Positions 4,646 to 36,498 of a DNA stretch of 64,000 bases are shown piece by piece. Each line of letters begins with the position of its first letter. Position 1 is the stretch's first letter. Made by a program: the position numbers and the translations under genes. The stretch lies in IMG/VR virus record IMGVR_UViG_3300042889_001305. One strand, 5' to 3'. The notes under the pieces were generated by a model, which saw nothing but the letters and a program-made list of their open reading frames with translations, was not told where the DNA came from and searched no databases. The stretch is from a virus. Lineage: Duplodnaviria; Heunggongvirae; Uroviricota; Caudoviricetes.

Positions 4646-7153
4646 TTAAAAAGAAAAGAATTTTTCTGCATTTTTTTGTTCACTCATTACTTCACCCCAA
4701 CCTAAGGCGTTATAGAAATCTTGTAACTTACCTTTTAATTCCGCTTCGAAGATTCGATTATGGTCGGTATAAGTTGTAATGAAATCAACTATTTCTTGTG
4801 GGTCATCATATCCTGTGAATCCCAATCCATCAATTCCTAATGGATTATTTTTAAGATAGACCCATTTGATTTTATCACCATCTTTCATTGGTGAATATTT
4901 GAATGGGGCTTTAAAGTGGGTTAAACAATCATTATATAGAATTGCTGCTTTAACGTGAGCAGGTGCACCTTTTTCCATATGGAATAATTGTCTTTTCTTT
5001 GGTGAATATTTTGAAAGGTTTTTAACTGCTGAGTTCTTTGCAATTTCATGTATCGGTCTACTTACCATACTCTTTTTAAACGCAAGAACAAATGCTGTTA
5101 ATTCCTCTTCAGTTTTACCTTTTAAGATATCTATTAGAACCGTCCCCATACAATCTTGAAACGCCTTAGGGAATGATGACCTTCTAACATCCAATCCCTT
5201 TACATCCAATCTATCTACGGCAACACCATTGTTTGAAATAATCCATTGTGCGTATCTCTTTTTTGCAATCCAAATACCTGCCCTAGCAACGTATTCCTTT
5301 TTAATTTCTAATCGGTGATTTTGAACATTGAAAAACTTATCTGAAAGAATATCATAAAACTTATTTAGATAATCTTGCATTTCACCTGCGATTCCATCTA
5401 CCAATACTGCAACTTCACTATCTGGCATTTCCTTCCAATTTGGATGACGGAAATCTAAAAGTGGTACTGCAGAAAAAAATACTGAATCCGTATCAATGTA
5501 AATGTTAGAATCCACATCAGTAGTACCTAACTCTTTATTGTATTTGATGTTTCCCATATTCGCAGAGTTCTTAATAACCGTCTGACCCGTAGTCGTAACT
5601 GCCTCCGCATTATCAACATCATAAAACCGAAAGGCAGGAAGACCAAGCACACCATAAAGAGAGTTAAGTAGAATTTTTTGAACCAACTGTCTTTTGCCGT
5701 AAAAGGCATATTTTTCTTTATTACCCTCCTGGCCGTACTTCTTTTCCAACTTTCTAAACTCCACCCTTTCATTGAACCAAATATCTAAAATTTCAGGAAT
5801 ACATCCTATTTTATCTTTACGATATAACACACCATTTGATGATATTGTTAAATCTGCCTCTTTAATATACTTTTCTAAATTATCACGTGAGATTTTATTA
5901 TCACCCATTTGATAGTAATCAACCTCCCTCTTCATATATTTCTGAACATCCCAATCTGCAATTTTAGCAACTTTGGTTTCAGGAGAAATGTTGATTGTCA
6001 TGATGATTGATGGATATAGAGATGTTAAATCCAAATCATATACCCAATCATACTTACCCACAATCGGGTCTTTTACATACGCACCGATAAACTTTTCTTG
6101 TTCATTATCTCTCAATGCCTGCATCATTTCCTTACGGTCTGATGGTTTATTCGGAGCAACTAATCCCTTACGTTTAAGGAAACATAACAATGCACCCTCT
6201 AAATACTTAGATGAATAAACGAAGTCCTCATAGGGAACGTGTCCTGCGTGGCAGATACCTCTACATAAATCAATGAATTGTAATTTCTTATCCAACTCCA
6301 CAACAATCTCAACATCGACTAAGTTATACTCAATGAACTTTTCAATGTCTTCATTAAATAAATCATCCAATGAACCTTGATATTCAATCTTACCCTTACC
6401 TAATTCAATCGTACCAATGGTATCTAATCGATAGTTAGGTAATTCGTTGTAGTTAAATTTCTTATAGAGTGATAGGTAATCCAAACAACTTACTCCTGCA
6501 AAGAACCATCTTTGACGATATGGAGAATAAAATGCTTGACCAATAGGTGATAACCTCTTTGCTTGAGATTCACCTAAGATGCGTTTCATTCGGTTGAATA
6601 GATACGGAATATCAAAATTATCAATGTTCCAACCAGTTAAAATATCCGGTGCAATACCTTCATAAAGTTCTAAGAACTTCATACACATATCCCTTTCATC
6701 TCTGAATGGTAGAATGATTGCCTTATCGGTTTTTCGTTCCACCATCTTACCTTTCTTATCCATAATCAATACCCAATATTGATTGGTGATATTATCTTGT
6801 AGACCAATAGCGGTAAGTTCGTTTTCAGCTTTTTCGGTATCAGGTAATCCACTTTCCATTTCCACCTCAATATCAAATGTCATTGTTACGATGGTATCTG
6901 ATGGAATATCGGAATCGGTATAAGTATCGACTAAAACACGTGTTGTTTCGGGTACATCCGATTCAAATAAATTTGGGTCATCCCCTTTGAATTTATAAAT
7001 CTTAGTTAATTTATCACCATAAATAGAACGGGCTTCACCTCTCTCTGCTCTTTCGTATGCGTATCTGGTGTATGGGAAGGTTCGGTAACCTAAATGAGAA
7101 TCCCAAAGGTGAATGAGATTTCGTTCCCTTTGATAATATATGTTTTTGTACAA
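4646..7153 (-). CDS. Family B DNA polymerase (T4 gp43-like)
   Basis: DLTSLYPSII (motif A, DxxSLYPS) and YIDTDSVFF (motif C, YGDTDS) are present. It also has exonuclease-like N-terminal blocks. 835 aa. The apparent start codon is TTG (7151-7153) with no in-frame ATG nearby. Confidence 0.9.
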   Translation of the reverse strand: MYKNIYYQRERNLIHLWDSHLGYRTFPYTRYAYERAERGEARSIYGDKLTKIYKFKGDDPNLFESDVPETTRVLVDTYTDSDIPSDTIVTMTFDIEVEMESGLPDTEKAENELTAIGLQDNITNQYWVLIMDKKGKMVERKTDKAIILPFRDERDMCMKFLELYEGIAPDILTGWNIDNFDIPYLFNRMKRILGESQAKRLSPIGQAFYSPYRQRWFFAGVSCLDYLSLYKKFNYNELPNYRLDTIGTIELGKGKIEYQGSLDDLFNEDIEKFIEYNLVDVEIVVELDKKLQFIDLCRGICHAGHVPYEDFVYSSKYLEGALLCFLKRKGLVAPNKPSDRKEMMQALRDNEQEKFIGAYVKDPIVGKYDWVYDLDLTSLYPSIIMTINISPETKVAKIADWDVQKYMKREVDYYQMGDNKISRDNLEKYIKEADLTISSNGVLYRKDKIGCIPEILDIWFNERVEFRKLEKKYGQEGNKEKYAFYGKRQLVQKILLNSLYGVLGLPAFRFYDVDNAEAVTTTGQTVIKNSANMGNIKYNKELGTTDVDSNIYIDTDSVFFSAVPLLDFRHPNWKEMPDSEVAVLVDGIAGEMQDYLNKFYDILSDKFFNVQNHRLEIKKEYVARAGIWIAKKRYAQWIISNNGVAVDRLDVKGLDVRRSSFPKAFQDCMGTVLIDILKGKTEEELTAFVLAFKKSMVSRPIHEIAKNSAVKNLSKYSPKKRQLFHMEKGAPAHVKAAILYNDCLTHFKAPFKYSPMKDGDKIKWVYLKNNPLGIDGLGFTGYDDPQEIVDFITTYTDHNRIFEAELKGKLQDFYNALGWGEVMSEQKNAEKFFSF

Positions 7154-7180
7154 ATCTGTAACTTTTTATGTGTAATTTTA

Positions 7181-7546
7181 TTATTTTATTGATTCATTAA
7201 ATCTTCTTCTCTCTTCCATTGATTTCCAATTCACACCATCAATCAAATCATCAATGGTATCAAATGATGGAGAATTTATCAGACCACCACCCATTAACAT
7301 AACAATCTTACCAGATGAGGATTTTTTAATACTACCGGTAGATATTACTTGCCAAAAGTTTCTTTTACCTTTATATTCATCAGGAACGATAAAATCAATA
7401 ATATTACCTTTACCTTTGATTATATTTAACTTTTCAGTCTTACTAATTTTTTCCAAAGATTTATTAGCAGGGATTCCTTCAGCTCCTTTAAATTGTTTTC
7501 CGCCGAATTCGGTAATTAGATTCTTTAACTTTATCATATTGGACAT
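7181..7546 (-). CDS. Hypothetical protein
   Basis: The track ORF starts at a TTG (7594). I prefer the in-frame ATG at 7544-7546 (MSNMIKLKN...), which is preceded by AAGGA. No recognisable motif. Confidence 0.4.
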   Translation of the reverse strand: MSNMIKLKNLITEFGGKQFKGAEGIPANKSLEKISKTEKLNIIKGKGNIIDFIVPDEYKGKRNFWQVISTGSIKKSSSGKIVMLMGGGLINSPSFDTIDDLIDGVNWKSMEERRRFNESIK

Positions 7547-7613
7547 CCTTGTTATTTGTTTATAAATATAAAATAAATTGGATTTAACACCCAATTTTAC
7601 ATTTTTGTTTTAA

Positions 7614-7856
7614 TTATAGTTTTTTTAATGGAACTAATTTACCATCAACTATTTTATGAGGTATCCCATCTTTAATTACAAATGGTGGTTTTTTATTTAT
7701 ATCAATTCCTTGATTAAGTAACTCTTGTTTTATTTGTTTTTTACGCAGTTCTTCCTCTCTACGATTGAACCATTTTTCAGCTTTTAAACTACCTTCTTTT
7801 GGTAAAGATATCTTATGTGGTTTAAATGAACTCTTCTTTTTTATATCACCTGCCAT
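7614..7856 (-). CDS. Hypothetical basic protein (80 aa)
   Basis: ATG start. Lys/Arg-rich. It sits in the operon between the PLP enzyme and the polymerase. Confidence 0.4.
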   Translation of the reverse strand: MAGDIKKKSSFKPHKISLPKEGSLKAEKWFNRREEELRKKQIKQELLNQGIDINKKPPFVIKDGIPHKIVDGKLVPLKKL

Positions 7857-7868
7857 TATTTTATTTTT

Positions 7869-8708
7869 TTAAAATTTGTAAATTCCACCAATATTCCAGA
7901 ATAGAATAGTTCCTTCGATTTGGTCTATGTTTTCTTCTAACCACTTCCATTGCTTTACATCCCAAAATTGGTTGCAAGGGAATGGGGTTTCGTAACCATC
8001 TAATCTATTCTCAAATAGATACTCTGATTTTCGTATATTTAGGGGAATTGGAATCCCACTCTTTTTAAGTGTTTTATTGATTGAACTAACCGATGATACA
8101 CATGTTGTCCAAATCTTCTTTTTAACTTGTGGAAAAAACTCTTTAAGTTCCTCTCTATAATATCCTCTTGCTAATCCTGCAAGAGTTACACCACTACCAG
8201 ATGATACTACTAAATTATCAAAATGGGCAAGGGGTTGAATTCTATCTGCAAGATAATCTTTATAGAAATCGTGGTCAAAAGCGTAAGGTAACATTTGCCA
8301 TCCCCTTTCTCTTGCATCTTTCTTTAACGAATTATACATAATCTGCATCATATTAGGTCTAATTGGATATAGGTTTGTTTTAGGATGCATTTCCTTAATC
8401 ATTCTCAAATATTCCTGTGATATCTTTTTAGAATCAGGGTGTGCTGCATAAAATTCAATTCCCAATTCCTCACATATTGCACTCAATGCCCATGCTGTCC
8501 AACTACCATCTACGGAAAGGTGAACCAGTGGTTTTGATTTATCAATATATTTTTTAACCAATTCAAATAATGCTGCTAATTTACCCCACGGCGGTAATAT
8601 CATACCATCGCCCATCAAGTCATCCCTCTTTACCCATACTTCTCTACCCTTAATGTGATAAAGTTCTAATGGGGTATCTTCGGTTAATCCTTTTAGTTTT
8701 AAATCCAT
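7869..8708 (-). CDS. PLP-dependent enzyme, fold type II (ACC deaminase / D-cysteine desulfhydrase family), shortened
   Basis: TPLELYHIKGREVWVKRDDLMGDGMILPPWGKLAALFEL parallels E. coli DcyD TPLEYL..GREIFIKRDD......GNKLRKLEFL, placing the PLP lysine in WGK. The glycine loop VVSSGSGVTLAGLA parallels VVASGSAGTHAGLA. It is 279 aa against about 330 for the family. Confidence 0.7.
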   Translation of the reverse strand: MDLKLKGLTEDTPLELYHIKGREVWVKRDDLMGDGMILPPWGKLAALFELVKKYIDKSKPLVHLSVDGSWTAWALSAICEELGIEFYAAHPDSKKISQEYLRMIKEMHPKTNLYPIRPNMMQIMYNSLKKDARERGWQMLPYAFDHDFYKDYLADRIQPLAHFDNLVVSSGSGVTLAGLARGYYREELKEFFPQVKKKIWTTCVSSVSSINKTLKKSGIPIPLNIRKSEYLFENRLDGYETPFPCNQFWDVKQWKWLEENIDQIEGTILFWNIGGIYKF

Positions 8709-10204
8709 TGATATATTCCTCCTGAGTTTGACGTTAATTCTCCTTTCATTTTTCTATGAGAGAACCCGTGTATTTTTTCAAAGTTATCACCAATGACATG
8801 AATCATATTTTTTCTTTTCTTAAAATTAATAGATTCATCTTTTAAAATGATTTCTTCGATGTATTGTTTAAAATTTGTTCCTTTTTGAAATGCTCTTTTT
8901 TCCTGGTCTAAAATCTCATCAGGCAGTTTACCTCTGAATGCATTAGCAAGTGGTAATTTCCATTGACCTCCTTTAGATAAGTATTCATCGGTTAAATTAG
9001 TAGTATAGTTTAAAAATTCGGTATCAAAGAATGGGCATCTTAATTCGATTGTTCCATAATTCATAAAGATAGTATTACCTCTTAATAGGTTACCATAGTA
9101 TTGTTTTTCAAATAACTTTTTACGAACATCACTCCAATCTGGTTTCTTACTGAACATACGGAATGTACCATACGAACCATAGGATTCATCAGAACCCTCA
9201 CCACTAAATGCTACCTTAATACCATCTCTTGCCATTTGTTCTGCAATAAAGGATTGTAGGATACCCACTTCCATTTGAACGGTCGATGGATATTCGATTA
9301 CTCTAATTGAATCTAAAAATCTTTGTTTAATTATTTCTTCATCTTTAGGAACAAATACTTCAACTAACTCCACTCCTAAATACTCCGCACATACTCTTGC
9401 CTTTTGTAAATCCTTTGAGGTTTCATCAAATGCAATTGTGTATGCTTTTAGGTTTGGTATACGTTGTGATAGTAGGTAGGTAATGATTGCAGAATCAATC
9501 CCACCACTTAGTGATGTAGCAATTGGTACATCTGATAATAATCTTTTATCTACTGCAGTTTCTAATAACTTAAATGTAGTTTCACCAACTTCTTCATGTG
9601 ATGCCGGTATAGTAGGTTCGTTTGAGAATTGAAAATAATAATCTTTATGAACTACAATCGTATCAGTATTTAAATCAATTTCTACCAATGAATTCTTAGG
9701 TACAAACTTAATATCTGAACTCTTTACCTGTGTTGTAATGGATTTCAATTCACTAGCGATGATATAGTTGTTTGTATTGTGAATATAAAGGGGCAATTTA
9801 CCCACCCAGTCCCTCGATAGTATCAACTTATCATTATCGTATATAATGAATGAGAACATACCCTCTAATCTCTTTAATTCACCTTCCTTGTAAAGATATA
9901 GAATAATTTCTGAATCTGAATTAGATTTAAAGTGATACCCCCTTCCTTCGTATTCTTTACGCAATTGAGGATAGTTCCAAATCTCACCATTGACTACCAA
10001 TTCAACTCCATCCCATTCCATAGGTTGATTACCCAATGGTGAAGTATCGTTGATTGATAATCGGTTATGTCCTAAGATAATATGTTTATCGTTATATTGG
10101 AATTCTTTAATACCACGATTATCTCTACCACGATGCTCAATTGCTTCGAGCATTACATTCACATCATCTCTTTTATATCCAATCGTTGCTACAATTCCAC
10201 ACAT
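8699..10204 (-). CDS. Asparagine synthetase (glutamine-hydrolysing)-like amidotransferase
   Basis: The N-terminal MCGI carries the Cys2 nucleophile of class II glutamine amidotransferases. The PP-loop SLSGGIDSAIITYL is an ATP pyrophosphatase motif. 501 aa. Its stop overlaps the start of the PLP enzyme gene. Confidence 0.85.
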   Translation of the reverse strand: MCGIVATIGYKRDDVNVMLEAIEHRGRDNRGIKEFQYNDKHIILGHNRLSINDTSPLGNQPMEWDGVELVVNGEIWNYPQLRKEYEGRGYHFKSNSDSEIILYLYKEGELKRLEGMFSFIIYDNDKLILSRDWVGKLPLYIHNTNNYIIASELKSITTQVKSSDIKFVPKNSLVEIDLNTDTIVVHKDYYFQFSNEPTIPASHEEVGETTFKLLETAVDKRLLSDVPIATSLSGGIDSAIITYLLSQRIPNLKAYTIAFDETSKDLQKARVCAEYLGVELVEVFVPKDEEIIKQRFLDSIRVIEYPSTVQMEVGILQSFIAEQMARDGIKVAFSGEGSDESYGSYGTFRMFSKKPDWSDVRKKLFEKQYYGNLLRGNTIFMNYGTIELRCPFFDTEFLNYTTNLTDEYLSKGGQWKLPLANAFRGKLPDEILDQEKRAFQKGTNFKQYIEEIILKDESINFKKRKNMIHVIGDNFEKIHGFSHRKMKGELTSNSGGIYQWI

Positions 10205-10209
10205 ATTAT

Positions 10210-10632
10210 TTATTTTATATCAGCTTCTACGTCTTTTAAATTCATTTCTATCATTTTCAACTCATCATTTAACCAATCATATTTTCCAAATGCTATATCC
10301 TTTATCTTTGCATTGATTTCCCAACGTTGAATAATATCTCCTACTACATTTAATTCTAATAATTGAAACGAAATTGTATTAGTTTGTTTAGATTTATTTT
10401 CTGCTAATCCCTTGCAAATAATTGAAGCAATTGGAATTTCTGAAGTTTCATACATCTCAATTGTTAAATCACCCCAATTTACCCACCCATCATCATAAAC
10501 ACAAACTACTTTTAATTCACTCATTTTATGGACCGCATATGTTGGGATAACAAATGGGGAATTAAATTCAATTAAAAATCTATTTACTTTTTGTGGTTCA
10601 AATGCTACGAACTCTTGTTGTTCTTTTTTCAT
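10210..10632 (-). CDS. Hypothetical protein (140 aa)
   Basis: ATG start that overlaps the stop of the TS-like gene (translational coupling). No recognisable motif. Confidence 0.45.
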   Translation of the reverse strand: MKKEQQEFVAFEPQKVNRFLIEFNSPFVIPTYAVHKMSELKVVCVYDDGWVNWGDLTIEMYETSEIPIASIICKGLAENKSKQTNTISFQLLELNVVGDIIQRWEINAKIKDIAFGKYDWLNDELKMIEMNLKDVEADIK

Positions 10633-10633
10633 A

Positions 10634-11332
10634 TTATTTATTTAATACTTCTAATAACTTATGAGTCTTTTTCGTTTCATCATTCATTTTACCGATATGA
10701 CAAGAACAAGCTAAAACTGAAACTTTCCCTAACTCCATACCACTTTCTCTCGCTAAGAACTTACCCATCTCAACCAATGCAGTGTAATCTGCGTAACCTG
10801 ATTTGGATACTCTATTTGAACGAATGATTGATGTTAGGTAGATTTTACCACCACGAGGTTTAATATCAATCCCTAACATACAAGGTTGTGAGTATGGATT
10901 CCTAGCATCTCTGCTCGGGTCAAAGATAATCAATTCACATCTCTTAACTGCTTTACCAGTTTTAAGGATTTTAATTACATTTTCTACTTGATTAAATGTT
11001 CCTTGCCATGCAATCATTCTACCCCAATATGAATCATGCCAGTGGTCTTTAATGAATTTGTATTCCAATCCCTCTTCGGCTACAAAGAATGGGTTATCCG
11101 ATACCTTTGGTTGTGGTTCTAAGAAGGTTACGGTCTTTGCGTAATCAATTCTATCATCTCCCATAATTTCTCTAAAATGTGGGTCGAACCATTCATCAGA
11201 TTTAAATTCGGTGATTTCTGTCATTACGTTTAACTCTTCGGTTAAATCGCCTACCTTTACGCCATTGGCAATAAGGTGTTTAGATACCTTTACCCATGCA
11301 TCTCCCGGAGATGTTGCTTCTATAACTGTCAT
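10634..11332 (-). CDS. Thymidylate synthase-family enzyme (dNMP 5-hydroxymethylase/methylase-like), short form
   Basis: SQPCMLGIDIK carries the Pro-Cys nucleophile. KIYLTSIIRSNRVSKSGYADYTALVEM parallels TS [27 protein letters not shown], and VSVLACSCHI parallels the TS C-terminal block. It is 232 aa, shorter than ThyA and closer in size to phage dCMP/dUMP hydroxymethylases. Confidence 0.75.
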   Translation of the reverse strand: MTVIEATSPGDAWVKVSKHLIANGVKVGDLTEELNVMTEITEFKSDEWFDPHFREIMGDDRIDYAKTVTFLEPQPKVSDNPFFVAEEGLEYKFIKDHWHDSYWGRMIAWQGTFNQVENVIKILKTGKAVKRCELIIFDPSRDARNPYSQPCMLGIDIKPRGGKIYLTSIIRSNRVSKSGYADYTALVEMGKFLARESGMELGKVSVLACSCHIGKMNDETKKTHKLLEVLNK

Positions 11333-11338
11333 ATTATT

Positions 11339-12559
11339 TTATTTTATTTTTTTCCAAATCCAAATGGGTTCACCAAATGCATTATTTTTATTGAGTTCTG
11401 TTTTTTCTTTGAGTTCTTCTGCAAAATATTCAGATTTAGCATTTCCTGCACCGCCGGAATTAAACCTTTTTGTCATTTCCATTCCAATACAACCCATATA
11501 TTCTAATCCCTCTGATTTAATAAAGTCATTCATAGCATTTACAATATCAACATACCCCTTATCTGGTGCTGAAAATACATCTGCAATATTAACTGCTAAT
11601 AACCCACCCTTCTTTAAGGTAGGGATTATTTTTTTAATTGTTTTATGTAGGAAATTGGTATTCCAATCATCTATCTTTTTATAGCGTAAATAACTTTGAG
11701 TATCATGTGTGGAATACTTTTCAGTATTGAAGTATGGAGGTGAAGTGAAGATTGTATCAAAAAAGTTTTCATATTTGGAATAATCCACATCTTCTGCCGG
11801 TAACTTTATCAGTTCCACAGTTTTAGGATTCTCAAAAAACGTTTTGTGTTTCTGATAAAATTCTATTTGGTTTTCATAATTTGGGTGATTATCTAAATTA
11901 GGGTCTATACCAACATAATGTTTACCCGTTTCACTTGCAAAGAATCCACATAATCTATCTCCCCAACCTGCTGAAAAATCTAATATATTCTCACTTTGGA
12001 ATCTATCATAAAATGCTTTAGCAATTACAGGTTTGAATTGTGATGCCACATACTTTCGTAATGTAGTTGCCATCTTTAGTGTTTCCTTATTTACATCAGT
12101 TAGGACTTGTTCTAATGTGAAGAATGCCCGAACTATGGTTTTTATACCATTAACTGTCTGCCATGTCTTCCAACCTGATGGTGTTCTTGACCAATCTACC
12201 TTCCATCGATTTTCTATATGGAATGGGTTGGATGCGTTATTACCAACATTCGTTCTTTTAAAGTAATAATTACTACTATCAAATGTAAGTGGATATGCAG
12301 ATTCCCTTTCATTACGCGGAAACCATTCTCCCTCCACTAAAATATCCGGCCACCAAGTACCCTTTAACTTTTTATATGCATCAATCGTTTCTTGTTCTGT
12401 AATAATAGGAATAGGTGGTGGATAAGTATGTAATACTTCTGATAATGTTTCTACTATCTCTTCCTTTTCAAATGTATTTAGTATATGTTTCCACTCCTCC
12501 TTATCAATATTGATATAGGGGGTCATTCCATAAAACTTTTTGAAATATTCTTTTATCAT
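11339..12559 (-). CDS. SAM-dependent amino-methyltransferase-like protein (SPPY motif), paralog P2
   Basis: LDFSAGWGDRLCGFFA (motif I) and FTSPPYFNTEKY (motif IV). The N-terminus MIKEYFKKFYGMTPY matches the P3 N-terminus MYIEYFDKFYGMTPY. I therefore take the ATG at 12557-12559 rather than the track's TTG at 12667. AGGAAAA lies 12 nt upstream. Confidence 0.6.
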   Translation of the reverse strand: MIKEYFKKFYGMTPYINIDKEEWKHILNTFEKEEIVETLSEVLHTYPPPIPIITEQETIDAYKKLKGTWWPDILVEGEWFPRNERESAYPLTFDSSNYYFKRTNVGNNASNPFHIENRWKVDWSRTPSGWKTWQTVNGIKTIVRAFFTLEQVLTDVNKETLKMATTLRKYVASQFKPVIAKAFYDRFQSENILDFSAGWGDRLCGFFASETGKHYVGIDPNLDNHPNYENQIEFYQKHKTFFENPKTVELIKLPAEDVDYSKYENFFDTIFTSPPYFNTEKYSTHDTQSYLRYKKIDDWNTNFLHKTIKKIIPTLKKGGLLAVNIADVFSAPDKGYVDIVNAMNDFIKSEGLEYMGCIGMEMTKRFNSGGAGNAKSEYFAEELKEKTELNKNNAFGEPIWIWKKIK

Positions 12560-12563
12560 TAAA

Positions 12564-13796
12564 TTACATTTTCCTAAATACCCATACCGGTTCGCAGAAA
12601 GTTTTACCGGCATTTTCAATTGCCTTTTGCTTTTCTTCTTCGGAATATCGGTCTTCATCTCCCTCAATCATTGCACCTGCTCCAATTGAACCTGGCCTCT
12701 TAGCCATTTCCATACCTAAACATCCTTGATACTCTGCACCTTCTAATGTGGAAATAAAATCGTTCATTGGGTTAGTGATTTCCTGTTGACCTTTGCCATC
12801 ACCCTTTGAGGATGCATATACATCTGCGATATTAACTGCTAGATACCCACCCTTACGGATAGTAGGCCATACTTTTTCAATCGTTGCATGTAAGAATAAT
12901 TTATTCCATGCATCAATATTTTTATATCGAATCCAACTTTGAGTATCATCATATGAATATCTCTCTACGTTGAAATATGGTGGCGAACTGAATACAATAT
13001 CAAAGTAATCGGTATACTCACTATAATCCATATCCTCTGCGGGAGAACAATGAAAGGTTGCCCTCTTATCAGTTTCAAAAAAACCATTATTCTTTTTATA
13101 GAATTCGGCTTGTTTTTCGTATATTGGATGATTTTCTTTACGCGGGTCAATACCTACATAATGCTCACCATATTCTGATGCGAAAAATCCACATAATCTA
13201 TCACCCCATCCAGCAGAAATATCTAATACATTCTTTGCTTGAACGAAATCATAAAGTGCCTTTGCTACGTTTGGTTTGAACTGAGAACAAATATACTTTC
13301 TTAAAGATAGACAAGTTCTTAGGGTATTTTTACTAACCTCATCAAATTTTAGGGTATACATTCCACCGATTAGTGAAAACATAAAATCAGGGTTATTCCA
13401 AGTACGGAATGGGCCAGGCGATACTGTCCCATCTACGCTCCATCTATTTGCTTGTTGAAAATGATTCGATGCCCCATTACCAGTATTCAGCCTTCTTACA
13501 TATTGTTGTTTACCTTGAAATCCTAATGGATAACGGGTTTCAGATGCCTTACGAGGAAACCACTCACCTTCGGTTAGAAGTTCGTGATAACGAGTTCCTT
13601 TTAATTTAAGATACTCTTTTCTTGCATCCTCTTCAGAAATATCTGCATATGGTAATTCATATGTCATACATACTTTGGCAAGAGATTCCTTAACGTCTTC
13701 TCTTTGGTATGTTTTTTTAATGTGAGACCACTCTTCCTTACCGATATAAAGATATGGTGTCATACCATAAAATTTATCAAAATACTCTATATACAT
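12564..13796 (-). CDS. SAM-dependent amino-methyltransferase-like protein (SPPY motif), paralog P3
   Basis: LDISAGWGDRLCGFFA and FSSPPYFNVERY. It sits in tandem with P2 and is collinear with it over the whole length. ATG start, with a host-type promoter 36 nt upstream. Confidence 0.6.
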   Translation of the reverse strand: MYIEYFDKFYGMTPYLYIGKEEWSHIKKTYQREDVKESLAKVCMTYELPYADISEEDARKEYLKLKGTRYHELLTEGEWFPRKASETRYPLGFQGKQQYVRRLNTGNGASNHFQQANRWSVDGTVSPGPFRTWNNPDFMFSLIGGMYTLKFDEVSKNTLRTCLSLRKYICSQFKPNVAKALYDFVQAKNVLDISAGWGDRLCGFFASEYGEHYVGIDPRKENHPIYEKQAEFYKKNNGFFETDKRATFHCSPAEDMDYSEYTDYFDIVFSSPPYFNVERYSYDDTQSWIRYKNIDAWNKLFLHATIEKVWPTIRKGGYLAVNIADVYASSKGDGKGQQEITNPMNDFISTLEGAEYQGCLGMEMAKRPGSIGAGAMIEGDEDRYSEEEKQKAIENAGKTFCEPVWVFRKM

Positions 13797-25088: not shown

Positions 25089-25559
25089 TTATTTTGCCCA
25101 TTTACCATTAGAAACTATTTGTGCAATAATTCCATATACTGATAGGTCTTGAAAGGTATCTTCTATTGATTCCCCAACTGAATCCTCTTTACTTAGGACT
25201 ACCAATTGTTTTAATCTTTGGATTTTATCGTTCATTCTAAACCATAATCCCGTTAGTGATAATTTCTTATCCTCAGCAGTTTCTAATTTAGTACCAACCG
25301 AAATATTGTTTGGGCCGTAGTTTGATTGTTTTAGACAAAACAATTCGTATTGAGTAAACATAAGTCGTTTAAACTCATCCGTCATTTCTGGATATTCTTT
25401 TTCGACCTGTTCTATGATTTTGGGATTATCATATTTGATAAATGCAACCTCATCATCTTTAGTCTCCAATTTAGGAGCGATGTTCATTTGAAGTTGATTC
25501 TTCACCTGTTGGCCTATAATCTTAGGGCCACTTGATTGTGGGGGTGTGTTTTTTGCCAT
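25089..25559 (-). CDS. Hypothetical protein (156 aa)
   Basis: ATG start. A host-type promoter lies 28 nt upstream. Confidence 0.45.
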   Translation of the reverse strand: MAKNTPPQSSGPKIIGQQVKNQLQMNIAPKLETKDDEVAFIKYDNPKIIEQVEKEYPEMTDEFKRLMFTQYELFCLKQSNYGPNNISVGTKLETAEDKKLSLTGLWFRMNDKIQRLKQLVVLSKEDSVGESIEDTFQDLSVYGIIAQIVSNGKWAK

Positions 25560-29093: not shown

Positions 29094-29759
29094 TTATTTT
29101 TGTTTGAATTTAAACCCTGTTAGTTTTTCAATATCCGAAACCTCTACTTTATTATTATTTATACCATCTGGTTTAGATAAGTCGTTCTCAAATAAAAACG
29201 CAAACCATTCTTTATTTCTAACTACATAAAAAACTTTCCAACATTGTGTCGGTACGGAAATCTTTCCTATCTTTTTTAACTCACCCACATTTCCTGCCCA
29301 CACATGAACGGAATCTGATATTAGAGCAACATCTCTTGTTAGGGTTTCTAAGGATTTCCAATCTCCCGCATTTAATCTATGGTATTGTGCTACCATATTT
29401 GAATAATAGAAACTTTCATCTTGTATCGCCGGAGTTTGACATTGATTTGATTTTGCCGGCATTAGATGACCTCTATCAAATCCACTTCCTACATAATCGT
29501 TTCCAATATTGGTTTCGTTTGGTAAAAGGGGGTCGGGTTTAAAATTATCTTTACGTGGAATTGGATTTGGACAACCAATTTTTGCTTTGGTTTCCCACCA
29601 TTCTACTAAGACAGGATATCTTTTTGATTTACTAAAGTGTGAGGTGTAATTTGTGTGTTTTAAAACCACTACATCTTGTGCGAATGTTACAATTGTAACG
29701 AATGATAGCATCAACGTCATTAACGTAATCCCCACTATTGTTCCTAAATTTTTTCTCAT
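29094..29759 (-). CDS. Exported non-specific DNA/RNA endonuclease (beta-beta-alpha-Me, Serratia/EndoG family)
   Basis: N-terminal signal peptide MRKNLGTIVGITLMTLMLSFVTIVTFAQD. It carries the DRGH motif as GSGFDRGHLMPA. 221 aa. Confidence 0.75.
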   Translation of the reverse strand: MRKNLGTIVGITLMTLMLSFVTIVTFAQDVVVLKHTNYTSHFSKSKRYPVLVEWWETKAKIGCPNPIPRKDNFKPDPLLPNETNIGNDYVGSGFDRGHLMPAKSNQCQTPAIQDESFYYSNMVAQYHRLNAGDWKSLETLTRDVALISDSVHVWAGNVGELKKIGKISVPTQCWKVFYVVRNKEWFAFLFENDLSKPDGINNNKVEVSDIEKLTGFKFKQK

Positions 29760-34997: not shown

Positions 34998-35729
34998 TTA
35001 TATTTGTAGGTATATATACTCTGAAAACTCCTTATTTCCATTGGGTGAAAGATGCCAATCTCCATTATTTAATTCAGAATCACAAGTCCACCCTTTATTT
35101 ATGGTTAATTCTCGTAAATTTGTTAAAGCCGGTTCAATATATTTCCTAATATTATCACCCATTAATTTATCCCATGATAATAATAATGTTGATATATTAT
35201 TTTTTTTATCATCAATACCTTTTAAAGTATAGTATGTTGATAAAATAGAATTTCGTTGTAAAAATATTTCATTTGATAATTTTTTATTGAATATATTACA
35301 AAAGGTAGTTAACTCCGCATCGTAATATGGATATTCTTCATTAAAGTTTCTATGAGGTGAAAACGGAACAATTGAATTCAGGTCATTTTTTTTTAAAATT
35401 GAATGCTGAAATGCTATTCTATTCCAATAGGTTAATTGAAAAATTATTAGTGAATCATCATATATTTCACGAGGTAATCTATCTCCATATAGTTCTATTT
35501 GCTTATCATTATTAGGATGCGGAAATTCTAATTTAGAATTTATACAATTTAAATAATATAAATTTTCAATGTTTGAACTACCATTTATTGAATAGTTGTA
35601 TACATTTTTAGCTGATATATTTAACTTATCCGCTAACAAATCTACATATGATTTGCAATTAGGGTCAATAGAATTGGTATTTAACGAATGAGAACACCCA
35701 AAAATATATAAATGTTTGTATTTATTCAC
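34998..35729 (-). CDS. Hypothetical protein, weakly SGNH/GDSL-hydrolase-like
   Basis: The N-terminal LYIFGCSHSLNT resembles GDSL block I with Asp replaced by Cys. GTG start. Low confidence. Confidence 0.35.
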   Translation of the reverse strand: MNKYKHLYIFGCSHSLNTNSIDPNCKSYVDLLADKLNISAKNVYNYSINGSSNIENLYYLNCINSKLEFPHPNNDKQIELYGDRLPREIYDDSLIIFQLTYWNRIAFQHSILKKNDLNSIVPFSPHRNFNEEYPYYDAELTTFCNIFNKKLSNEIFLQRNSILSTYYTLKGIDDKKNNISTLLLSWDKLMGDNIRKYIEPALTNLRELTINKGWTCDSELNNGDWHLSPNGNKEFSEYIYLQI

Positions 35730-36498
35730 CCCAATACTTTTGTCTTAATTCGTACATATCAATTGCCTCTCTTTTCATTTGATTTCCAGCATGAAAATAT
35801 GCACCTTCTTTAAGATAACCACCTAAGAAATTTCTTCTCATTCTATTAGGGTCTTTATTTGGTTCTGACCCATGTACTACATGTGAGTGTAAAAGTGCAA
35901 CTTGTCCTTTTTTCAAATACCCTTCTATCTTACGGAAATCATGCCCTTCTGGCATTACACAACTTTTACCTCTCTCACTTCTCCAGTTATCGGTATTTGT
36001 TGCTTTTCTTTCTTCGTTATCTTCGATTGGTAAAACCGGTAATCTATGTGAACCTTCATAGTTCCATACTGCACCATTTTCAGGGTCGTGATTATCTAAT
36101 GCCAATGCAGTGTTGATAATTTCATTGTGTCCACAACCAGTATAGAATGCATTTTGATGTTGGTCTCTACCCAATTCGCCCTTTGGTTTGTAATAACCCC
36201 AAGTTTGTAATCCAACAACTCCACCTTCCATTAGGAATTCTGCTGCTTCTAAAATTTTTGGATGTGAAAATAATTTAGCTATTTTTTCTGATTCTCTATG
36301 TGGATACATAATGGGTTCGAACTCTTGCCATTTTCCTGGTTCTTTTTCATTACGTTCTACACGTAAACGGTCTAATTCTTCGTTGATTTCATCTACTTCT
36401 GCTTCGGTTAATAATTCCAAAACTGTGAAGCCTCGGTATCTCCAATCAAATGACATTTGTTGAAGTTCTTCCGTTGTAAGGTGTTTGTATTTTTGCAT
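35722..36498 (-). CDS. Fe(II)/2-oxoglutarate-dependent dioxygenase, PhyH (phytanoyl-CoA dioxygenase) family
   Basis: HQNAFYTGCGH and ALLHSHVVHGSEPN...R fit the PhyH HxD/E...H...R arrangement. 258 aa. Confidence 0.6.
   Translation of the reverse strand: MQKYKHLTTEELQQMSFDWRYRGFTVLELLTEAEVDEINEELDRLRVERNEKEPGKWQEFEPIMYPHRESEKIAKLFSHPKILEAAEFLMEGGVVGLQTWGYYKPKGELGRDQHQNAFYTGCGHNEIINTALALDNHDPENGAVWNYEGSHRLPVLPIEDNEERKATNTDNWRSERGKSCVMPEGHDFRKIEGYLKKGQVALLHSHVVHGSEPNKDPNRMRRNFLGGYLKEGAYFHAGNQMKREAIDMYELRQKYWGE

Follow-up and report, generated by a model that had tools for sequence, protein, structure and literature searches.

The window analysed here is a 64,000-nucleotide stretch of DNA from a virus of the class Caudoviricetes (IMG/VR record IMGVR_UViG_3300042889_001305), in which positions 8699–10204 carry a gene for a protein resembling asparagine synthetase B (AsnB). 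Our comparison suggests that this AsnB-like gene probably encodes a glutamine-dependent amidotransferase that tailors bases within a phage DNA hypermodification island, rather than a housekeeping asparagine synthetase. A preliminary description of the window had favored a carboxyl-bearing modified base or nucleotide over free aspartate as the likely substrate. This assignment gains support from four lines of comparative evidence, counted as independent: a residue signature, conserved synteny, a cassette swap, and absence from cellular genomes. Together, they make the locus look like the step that forms the amide in an as yet undescribed hypermodification pathway for DNA bases, one that is common in uncultured aquatic phages.

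A minus-strand open reading frame (ORF) with an ATG start fills exactly 8699–10204 and encodes a 501-residue protein beginning MCGIV. The plus-strand translation of the interval is riddled with stops; the preliminary description had named no strand. It had reported an asparagine-synthetase-like ORF in which a Cys2 class II glutaminase is fused to a PP-loop domain with an SGGIDS motif, and Pfam matches and motif positions bear this out. Pfam recognizes Asn_synthase (1.8e-42, from residue 212), GATase_7 (2.2e-30, residues 46–157), and GATase_6 (9e-27), the two GATase matches together spanning residues 37–157. The catalytic Cys2 is encoded at nucleotides 10199–10201, SGGIDS (residues 233–238) at 9491–9508, and SGEGSDE (residues 334–340) at 9185–9205.

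Alignment to E. coli AsnB (1CT9) covers residues 21–446 with an E-value of 5e-39, and the protein shares its fold and catalytic machinery with this enzyme and with human asparagine synthetase (ASNS). The glutaminase residues C2, R48, N72, G73, E74, and D97 correspond to C1, R49, N74, G75, E76, and D98 of E. coli AsnB. In the synthetase domain, the SGGxDS and SGEGSDE motifs are retained together with Y357, R387, K429 (here K416), and K449 (here K436). Enzymes of this family hydrolyze glutamine, adenylate a carboxylate, and form a carboxamide. Because the residues of both domains are conserved, the same three reactions are predicted for the AsnB-like protein, which very likely works as AsnB does, by adenylating a carboxylate that is then attacked by ammonia.

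The AsnB-like protein differs from E. coli AsnB and human ASNS in being about 50 residues shorter and in the motifs that distinguish true asparagine synthetases. Its score against the NCBIfam model of AsnB proper (NF006949) is 252.2 bits, far below the cutoff of 499. We aligned 149 sequences, comprising E. coli AsnB, phage proteins, and representatives found by scanning a library of 1.84 billion cluster representatives (~15 billion proteins). In this alignment, true AsnB sequences carry TTIRAS and Asp384, whereas the window clade carries VQMEVG (nucleotides 9263–9280 in the window) and an asparagine (Asn372, nucleotides 9089–9091), so that the arginine of TTxRAS and Asp384 are both absent. Lys376 was considered as a further discriminating residue and dropped, since HMMER and MAFFT place it one position apart and true AsnB representatives vary there too.

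Phylogeny likewise sets the window clade apart from bona fide AsnB. In a neighbor-joining tree, it is nested within a clade of 58 sequences (bootstrap 94) that includes gp124 of Streptomyces phage TurkishDelight. Gln322 and Asn384 are found in 46 of the 52 other members of this clade. With 32% identity across 90% of the length, TurkishDelight gp124 is also the window protein's best match in cultured phages. It has the same glutaminase and Asn_synthase architecture and the same Q322, E324, G326, and N384 signature, and, as in the window, its gene adjoins a gene of the DNA-methyltransferase fold.

The preliminary description knew of no AsnB-like enzymes in hypermodification pathways, a statement that has been overtaken by recent work. 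Yang et al. (PMC12783734) showed that CmoA makes carboxy-S-adenosylmethionine (carboxy-SAM), that CmoX uses C5 of cytosine in DNA as the site of carboxymethylation, and that SpCmoY of Synechococcus phage S-B43, an AsnB-synthetase homolog, ligates glycine to the 5-carboxymethylcytosine (5cxmC) of DNA in an ATP-dependent manner. A second, glutaminase-bearing ligase cluster was predicted to use ammonia; the enzyme was insoluble and was not assayed (PMC12783734). The gene order in TurkishDelight is ParB, ParB, an SPPC C5-methyltransferase, gp124, and a CmoA-like gene, from which we infer that gp124 represents the A0A7T0Q3R0 cluster of that paper; the supplement lists neither and could not confirm the match.

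The residue signature follows gene context. When IMG/VR was scanned with an alignment of the TurkishDelight type, 80 loci were obtained. The closest TurkishDelight-type relatives occupy 31 loci (L134–L164), and the 29 with an alignable ORF show AQ[VI/T]EI[GA] (SQIEIA in one) and Asn384. A CmoX-like C5-methyltransferase gene and a CmoA-like gene both flank the ligase in 28 of the 31, and ParB usually accompanies them; of the remaining three loci, two are truncated and show a single one of these two genes, and a 4.2-kb contig shows neither. T[TS][VI]RAS and Asp384 occur in 40 IMG/VR loci, many of them metagenome-assembled genomes (MAGs) of giant viruses, and these have no CmoX- or CmoA-like neighbors except for one weak C5-methyltransferase match on the opposite strand (L176).

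None of the CmoA/CmoX partners was found at the window locus itself. Searches with phmmer covered the 64-kb window and the 10-kb flanks of about 120 related loci and found no homolog of CmoA or CmoX (three queries each), of ParB, or of gp51 (amino-acid:DNA transferase), gp53 (radical SAM), gp54 (5-hmU DNA kinase), or gp58 of Pseudomonas phage M6. Where CmoA/CmoX systems have CmoA, an SPPC-type CmoX, and ParB, the AsnB-like gene of the window is accompanied by a divergent thymidylate-synthase-superfamily gene (TS-like), a gene for a pyridoxal-phosphate (PLP) enzyme homologous to M6 gp52, and methyltransferase-like paralogs with an SPPY motif, the exocyclic-amine type. The locus is an extension, by a variant cassette, of a recently described kind of system.

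This cassette is strongly conserved. Among loci with enough flanking sequence, the gene immediately upstream of the AsnB-like gene is the TS-like gene in 52 of 53, and the next gene downstream is the gp52-like PLP gene in all 59. The three ORFs usually overlap, the TS-like and AsnB-like ones by a few bases in loci outside the window, and the arrangement was seen in more than 100 related viral contigs. The single exception is L032 (9314–11482), where an in-frame deletion fuses the TS-like ORF to the AsnB-like ORF and takes away the catalytic cysteine together with ~14 N-terminal residues; the fusion is a natural variant with a dead glutaminase or else an artifact of assembly. In the window, a 140-residue ORF separates the two genes. 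Its homologs occur in only 2 of 64 loci, and it is a strain-specific insertion outside the conserved core.

In nine loci recovered by a scan for the TS-like family, a stand-alone protein of ~305 residues with a PP-loop takes the place of the AsnB-like gene in the slot between the TS-like and PLP genes. A locus with a 308-residue PP-loop protein (L095) and one with a 501-residue AsnB-like protein (L028) are 90–95% identical in their TS-like, PLP, methyltransferase-like, PolB, and ribonucleotide reductase (RNR) genes. The 308-residue protein has no glutaminase domain and matches SpCmoY (E-value 6e-10) and the CmoY-like gene of Staphylococcus phage vB-SscS-F1 (E-value 4e-16), which sits between CmoA-like and C5-methyltransferase genes. 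The window protein is remote from CmoY, with an E-value of ~1e-4 to the vB-SscS-F1 protein and no match to SpCmoY itself. As proposed for the window protein, SpCmoY is a PP-loop adenylating enzyme acting on the carboxyl of a modified DNA base; however, it lacks the glutaminase domain and uses glycine, whereas the window protein should deliver ammonia. Judged by homology, one or the other of the two ligase classes seen in 5cxmC systems occupies the slot. The swap therefore points to an adenylating, amide-forming step on a base-borne carboxyl with a variable amine donor, and is difficult to square with a role in asparagine supply.

The AsnB-like protein has more than 3000 metagenomic homologs, including Tara (marine) records, and copies with 62–100% identity are found in 64 IMG/VR loci on contigs of up to 288 kb. 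From this abundance, the gene is real and under selection. No close relative was found in 185,579 representative cellular (species) genomes. Unlike E. coli AsnB and human ASNS, the window clade appears on these searches to be confined to viruses, where it lies inside the modification cassette.

The two constant neighbors give the cassette its likely chemical setting. The PLP protein aligns with M6 gp52 over its full length (residues 8–274, 25% identity, BLASTP E-value 1e-23). Its predicted Schiff-base residue, Lys43 (nucleotides 8580–8582), aligns with K36 of gp52, the GSGVT phosphate-binding loop is conserved, and the C-terminal motif PFPCN..W.WL..FWNIG is common to both proteins. The AlphaFold2 (AF2) model (pLDDT 80.7) has the type II fold, and Foldseek places it nearest to D-cysteine desulfhydrase, a homolog of 1-aminocyclopropane-1-carboxylate (ACC) deaminase, and threonine deaminases (TM ~0.67). 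Purified M6 gp52 decarboxylates C-alpha-glycinylthymidine in DNA (PMC8989533).

In the TS-like protein, the catalytic Cys151 (nucleotides 10880–10882) and the phosphate-binding Arg171 are invariant and correspond to Cys146 and Arg166 of the TS superfamily. Alignments with MilA and M6 gp58 place Asp182 at the base-specificity position 177, which indicates the cytosine type; an hhalign alignment to E. coli ThyA, of low probability, shifts the gap around this position. At position 169, the site of the folate-binding Asp169, the window protein has Arg174, and a distant clade (L120–L125) has alanine. An aspartate at this position marks folate-dependent methylases and hydroxymethylases and an asparagine marks flavin-dependent 5-hydroxy-dCMP synthases (PMC13326640), and the TS-like protein falls into neither class. 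Its best profile match in the PDB is the CMP hydroxymethylase MilA. Foldseek matches its AF2 model (pLDDT 85.5) best to the dCMP hydroxylase AfhB of phage HY126 and to MilA.

The thymidine modification clusters of M6 and of Salmonella phage ViI also encode a homologous fold-type II PLP enzyme (PMC8989533). As proposed for the window locus, they combine a TS-superfamily supplier of modified pyrimidine with stepwise tailoring of an amino-acid-like adduct. In contrast, their 5-hydroxymethyluracil (5-hmU) DNA kinase, aGPT-Pplase/AADT, and radical SAM isomerase have no counterparts found at the window locus. Furthermore, the M6 and ViI pathways proceed without an adenylating ligase, which the window cassette has, and the TS-like enzyme of the window differs in being cytosine-type and lacking the folate-binding aspartate. 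The authors of that study remarked on metavirome clusters with uncharacterized 'amidoligase and glutaminotransferase' genes (PMC8989533).

Three SPPY methyltransferase-like paralogs share S[SA]GWG[GD]R as motif I and SPPYF as motif IV. The 544-residue paralog has in addition a conserved N-terminal region of ~290 residues (NQFFPTMLKTKIS, QPAVNFP.LTAK), and in a divergent clade its ortholog lies directly upstream of the TS-like gene. Distant jumbo-phage contigs (L120–L125) carry three or four copies around the cassette, and a gene of the 410-residue type adjoins the ligase slot in all cassette variants examined. A profile of the family found nothing significant among PDB sequences, and in tblastn searches its core matched only ordinary phage N4-C or DNA methyltransferases. 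The SPPY proteins are candidate DNA transferases of the island.

Other arrangements lack the TS-like gene. In L165 (1682–7169), the order is PolB, methyltransferase-like, PLP, D-2-hydroxyacid dehydrogenase, AsnB-like, Asp/Asn beta-hydroxylase-like dioxygenase, and RecA. In L166–L172, it is RNR, HD-like, AsnB-like, GNAT acetyltransferase, a homing endonuclease where sequenced (L166 and L172), and methyltransferase-like. The AsnB-like proteins of both groups carry TQISPA or QN[IV]GSA at the TTIRAS position. ORFs of ~220–240 residues upstream of the AsnB-like gene in L166 and L172 were considered as hidden TS-like genes and rejected (hhalign probability <1%). The variable partners all act on alpha-amino or alpha-hydroxy acids. 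The gene orders indicate that the region is a combinatorial modification island, whose most constant pair is a methyltransferase-fold gene and an adenylating ligase.

We infer the following order of steps. The pathway probably starts with the TS-like enzyme, which would make a C5-modified dCMP. The carboxyl may come from the product of this enzyme or from a carboxyalkyl or aminocarboxypropyl group set by the methyltransferase-like paralogs, which are candidates to install or extend the handle on DNA. The gp52-like PLP enzyme probably remodels an amino-acid-like part of the same adduct. As family chemistry implies, the Cys2 domain of the amidotransferase would hydrolyze glutamine and the ammonia would travel to the PP-loop domain, where the carboxyl would be adenylated with ATP and ammonia would displace AMP to give a primary carboxamide. 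Signature and context suggest that the substrate is the side chain, with its carboxyl group, of a modified cytosine that most likely is part of phage DNA by then. The Q-x-E-x-G and Asn signature points to a group chemically close to the 5cxmC of CmoY-type ligases, and the analogy with SpCmoY and gp52 favors action at the DNA level. The ligase step would diversify the final base, because the CmoY-like ligase of the sister phages would give a different amide.

A broader proposal is possible, although we hold it with less than even confidence. A widespread group of T4-like phages, uncultured and aquatic, may possess an undescribed amide-bearing cytosine hypermodification made without carboxy-SAM (CmoA/CmoX), a 5-hmU kinase, or an amino-acid:DNA transferase. 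The carboxylated adduct would come from a TS enzyme of a new cofactor class (Arg/Ala169), from the SPPY proteins, or from both, and the gp52-like PLP enzyme and an exchangeable ligase (AsnB-like or CmoY-like) would finish it.

Several observations weigh against a role of the AsnB-like protein in DNA tailoring. A gp52-like decarboxylase and the amidotransferase would have one carboxylate to compete for, unless the adduct carries a second or the chemistry of the PLP enzyme is different here. Neither the window nor the ~120 related loci yielded a CmoA, a CmoX, a 5-hmU DNA kinase, an amino-acid:DNA transferase, or a radical SAM isomerase, leaving any carboxyl handle without an established source. 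The protein narrowly passes the NCBIfam 'equivalog' model for glutamine-hydrolyzing asparagine synthase, TIGR01536 (282.6 bits, cutoff 267.1). The acidic pocket for the aspartate amino group is retained, with E336, D339, and E340 corresponding to E348, D351, and E352. Finally, the Q322/N384 subfamily has cellular members without Cmo neighbors (e.g., P0128), so that the signature is suggestive but alone is no proof of a DNA substrate. In human ASNS, the pocket is formed by Glu-364 as well as Asp-367 and Glu-368, with Asp-400 (Asp384 in E. coli) as the fourth residue (PMC6748925), and this fourth residue is not kept in the AsnB-like protein. The aspartate-binding residues thus give a mixed picture that leans against aspartate.

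We consider it unlikely, although not remote, that the substrate is a carboxyalkyl or amino-acid group (e.g., carboxymethyl or 3-amino-3-carboxypropyl) placed by the SPPY paralogs on N4 of cytosine or N6 of adenine, with the TS-like enzyme as an accessory only. Among the partners of the ligase slot, the SPPY genes are the most constant, occurring also in the TS-less L165 and L166–L172, and PLP enzyme, GNAT, 2-hydroxyacid dehydrogenase, and beta-hydroxylase-like dioxygenase all suit alpha-amino or alpha-hydroxy acid chemistry. In diphthamide synthesis, moreover, a PP-loop ligase amidates a SAM-derived aminocarboxypropyl group. However, the different AsnB-like motifs of the TS-less variants may indicate another substrate, and the window protein has Q-x-E-x-G in common with the 5cxmC-linked enzymes. 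The exclusive similarity of the methyltransferase-like core to ordinary methyltransferases also argues against this route, as does the lack of a carboxymethyl-SAM synthase in the window and ~120 related loci. Furthermore, no N4/N6 carboxymethyltransferase turned up in association with CmoA in the study of Yang et al. (PMC12783734).

Amidation of a free modified nucleotide (dNMP or dNTP) before polymerization appears improbable. The TS-like, AsnB-like, and PLP enzymes would then work as one pathway on small molecules, and the base would be complete when the polymerase incorporates it. Mononucleotides are the substrates of TS-superfamily enzymes, and the TS-like protein keeps Arg171 and Cys151 and most resembles dCMP/CMP enzymes. 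Translational coupling of the three ORFs, the presence of a DUF1599 protein, and the failure to find a DNA kinase or amino-acid:DNA transferase in the loci searched are all compatible with such a pathway. However, the characterized relatives act on DNA, SpCmoY on 5cxmC and M6 gp52 on C-alpha-glycinylthymidine, and the DNA-methyltransferase-like paralogs flanking the cassette suggest sequence-specific chemistry after replication.

That the gene is an ordinary asparagine synthetase, an auxiliary metabolic gene raising asparagine during infection and lying beside nucleotide genes by chance, is highly improbable: the TIGR01536 score, the near-full-length alignment with E. coli AsnB and human ASNS, the conserved E348, D351, E352, Y357, R387, K429, and K449, and the existence of true AsnB genes in viral contigs, above all giant-virus MAGs, are outweighed by the failing NF006949 score, the replaced TTxRAS arginine and Asp384 (viral AsnB genes keeping both lack such a gene context), the invariant and often overlapping TS-like and gp52-like neighbors, the replacement by a CmoY-like ligase without glutaminase in ~93%-identical genomes, and the absence of the clade from the cellular genomes scanned.

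As a DNA-tailoring amidotransferase, the AsnB-like protein would enlarge a group of enzymes that is itself new, since AsnB-family ligases have been recognized in DNA hypermodification only since late 2025 (PMC12783734, Nat Commun 2025). The glutamine-dependent class gains a second, abundant, and independent genomic setting, with thousands of metagenomic copies as candidates for expression. The trio of TS-like enzyme, gp52-like PLP enzyme, and amide ligase is not combined in the compared pathways and predicts a new modified cytosine. The exchange of AsnB-like for CmoY-like ligases is a natural experiment suggesting that DNA chemistry is diversified by exchanging one tailoring gene, which bears on the evasion of restriction and type IV systems. 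On the broader proposal above, phages that are ~93% identical would carry chemically different DNA. For viral annotation, where most source annotations label such genes 'asparagine synthase', the residues offer a rule, with TTxRAS and Asp384 marking asparagine synthetases and QxE and Asn384 marking DNA-modification amidotransferases.

Table 1. Positions of the AsnB-like gene, its domains and neighbors in the window, and of variant cassettes in related loci.
Feature	Position	Strand	Basis or remark
AsnB-like glutamine-dependent amidotransferase (main finding)	8699..10204	-	501 residues; ORF, Pfam, and Q322/N384 subfamily placement
N-terminal class II (Ntn) glutaminase domain, residues ~1-195	9620..10204	-	Pfam; residues mapped onto E. 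coli AsnB
PP-loop adenylating (synthetase) domain, residues ~212-450	8855..9571	-	Pfam, motif mapping
Fold-type II PLP enzyme, 279 residues, M6 gp52 homolog	7869..8708	-	BLASTP, AF2/Foldseek; 10-nucleotide overlap with AsnB-like gene
Divergent thymidylate-synthase-superfamily enzyme (TS-like), 232 residues	10634..11332	-	PDB profile match, AF2/Foldseek
140-residue ORF between TS-like and AsnB-like genes	10210..10632	-	No Pfam, PHROG, or NCBIfam match
SPPY methyltransferase-like paralog, 410 residues	12564..13796	-	Motif I SAGWGDR, motif IV SSPPYF
Second SPPY methyltransferase-like paralog, in tandem	11339..12667	-	Listed TTG start overlaps upstream gene; true start probably an internal ATG near 12553
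Third SPPY methyltransferase-like paralog, 544 residues	2220..3854	-	Long N-terminal extension
Swap loci, PP-loop protein in ligase slot	L092, L095, L105, L108, L110: ~6696-7619; L120, L123, L124, L125: ~6650-7600		Motif SLSFS[AG]GIDSS
HD-like/GNAT variant	L166:5274-11446; L172:5340-10854		HNH or GIY-YIG endonuclease between GNAT and methyltransferase-like genes

The window represents a region of T4-like replication and structural genes, with those for PolB, a clamp-like protein, RNR, thioredoxin, a DnaB-like helicase, and UvsX/RecA-like, gp32-like, baseplate, and tail-tube proteins. RNR, thioredoxin, two methyltransferase-like genes, the TS-like gene, the 140-residue ORF, the AsnB-like and PLP genes, PolB, the clamp-like gene, and the third methyltransferase-like gene form a tight same-strand run. 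The preliminary description was therefore accurate in placing the gene in a replication and modification operon. Two further small minus-strand ORFs without a family match lie between the PLP and PolB genes, at 7181–7594 (137 residues) and 7614–7856 (80 residues). Together with the 140-residue ORF, they are missing from almost all related loci, and the three look like strain-specific insertions in the island. A scan for promoters and terminators gave nothing above chance.

None of 50,697 phage records matched the 7-kb island in a megablast search. By PolB (51% identity), Microcystis phage Mel-JY01 stands closest among cultured phages; it lacks the entire island between thioredoxin and PolB.

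Three other minus-strand genes of the window are of note. A 156-residue ORF at 25089–25559 matches Pfam DUF1599, 'Nucleotide modification associated domain 1', with a score of 27.3 against a gathering score of 25. An Endonuclease_NS DNA/RNA non-specific endonuclease is encoded at 29094–29759 (E-value 4e-36) and would suit a phage whose own, protected DNA is spared while unmodified DNA of the host is degraded. Both proteins fit a phage with modified DNA. A PhyH-family Fe(II)/2-oxoglutarate dioxygenase (35722–36498, E-value 5e-15) stands beside several ORFs without a family match.

Two more distant loci place AsnB-like genes in other surroundings. In Achromobacter phage Motura (L067:5395–8699), a truncated AsnB-like gene of 426 residues lies between queC and a tRNA-guanine transglycosylase homolog, so that this 7-deazaguanine cluster (queC, tgt, queE) offers another amidotransferase in a DNA-modification pathway. 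A 7-deazaguanine pathway was rejected for the window, since the Motura match covers the glutaminase half only and Pfam recognized no Que or DpdA protein among the window ORFs scanned. L070 (4462–10630) is a metagenome contig of non-viral appearance whose AsnB-like protein (P0124) is 41% identical to that of the window. Its AsnB-like gene has MazG-like, guanylate-kinase-like, HhH-GPD glycosylase, radical SAM, and methyltransferase genes as neighbors, and the locus may be another nucleotide or DNA modification cluster.

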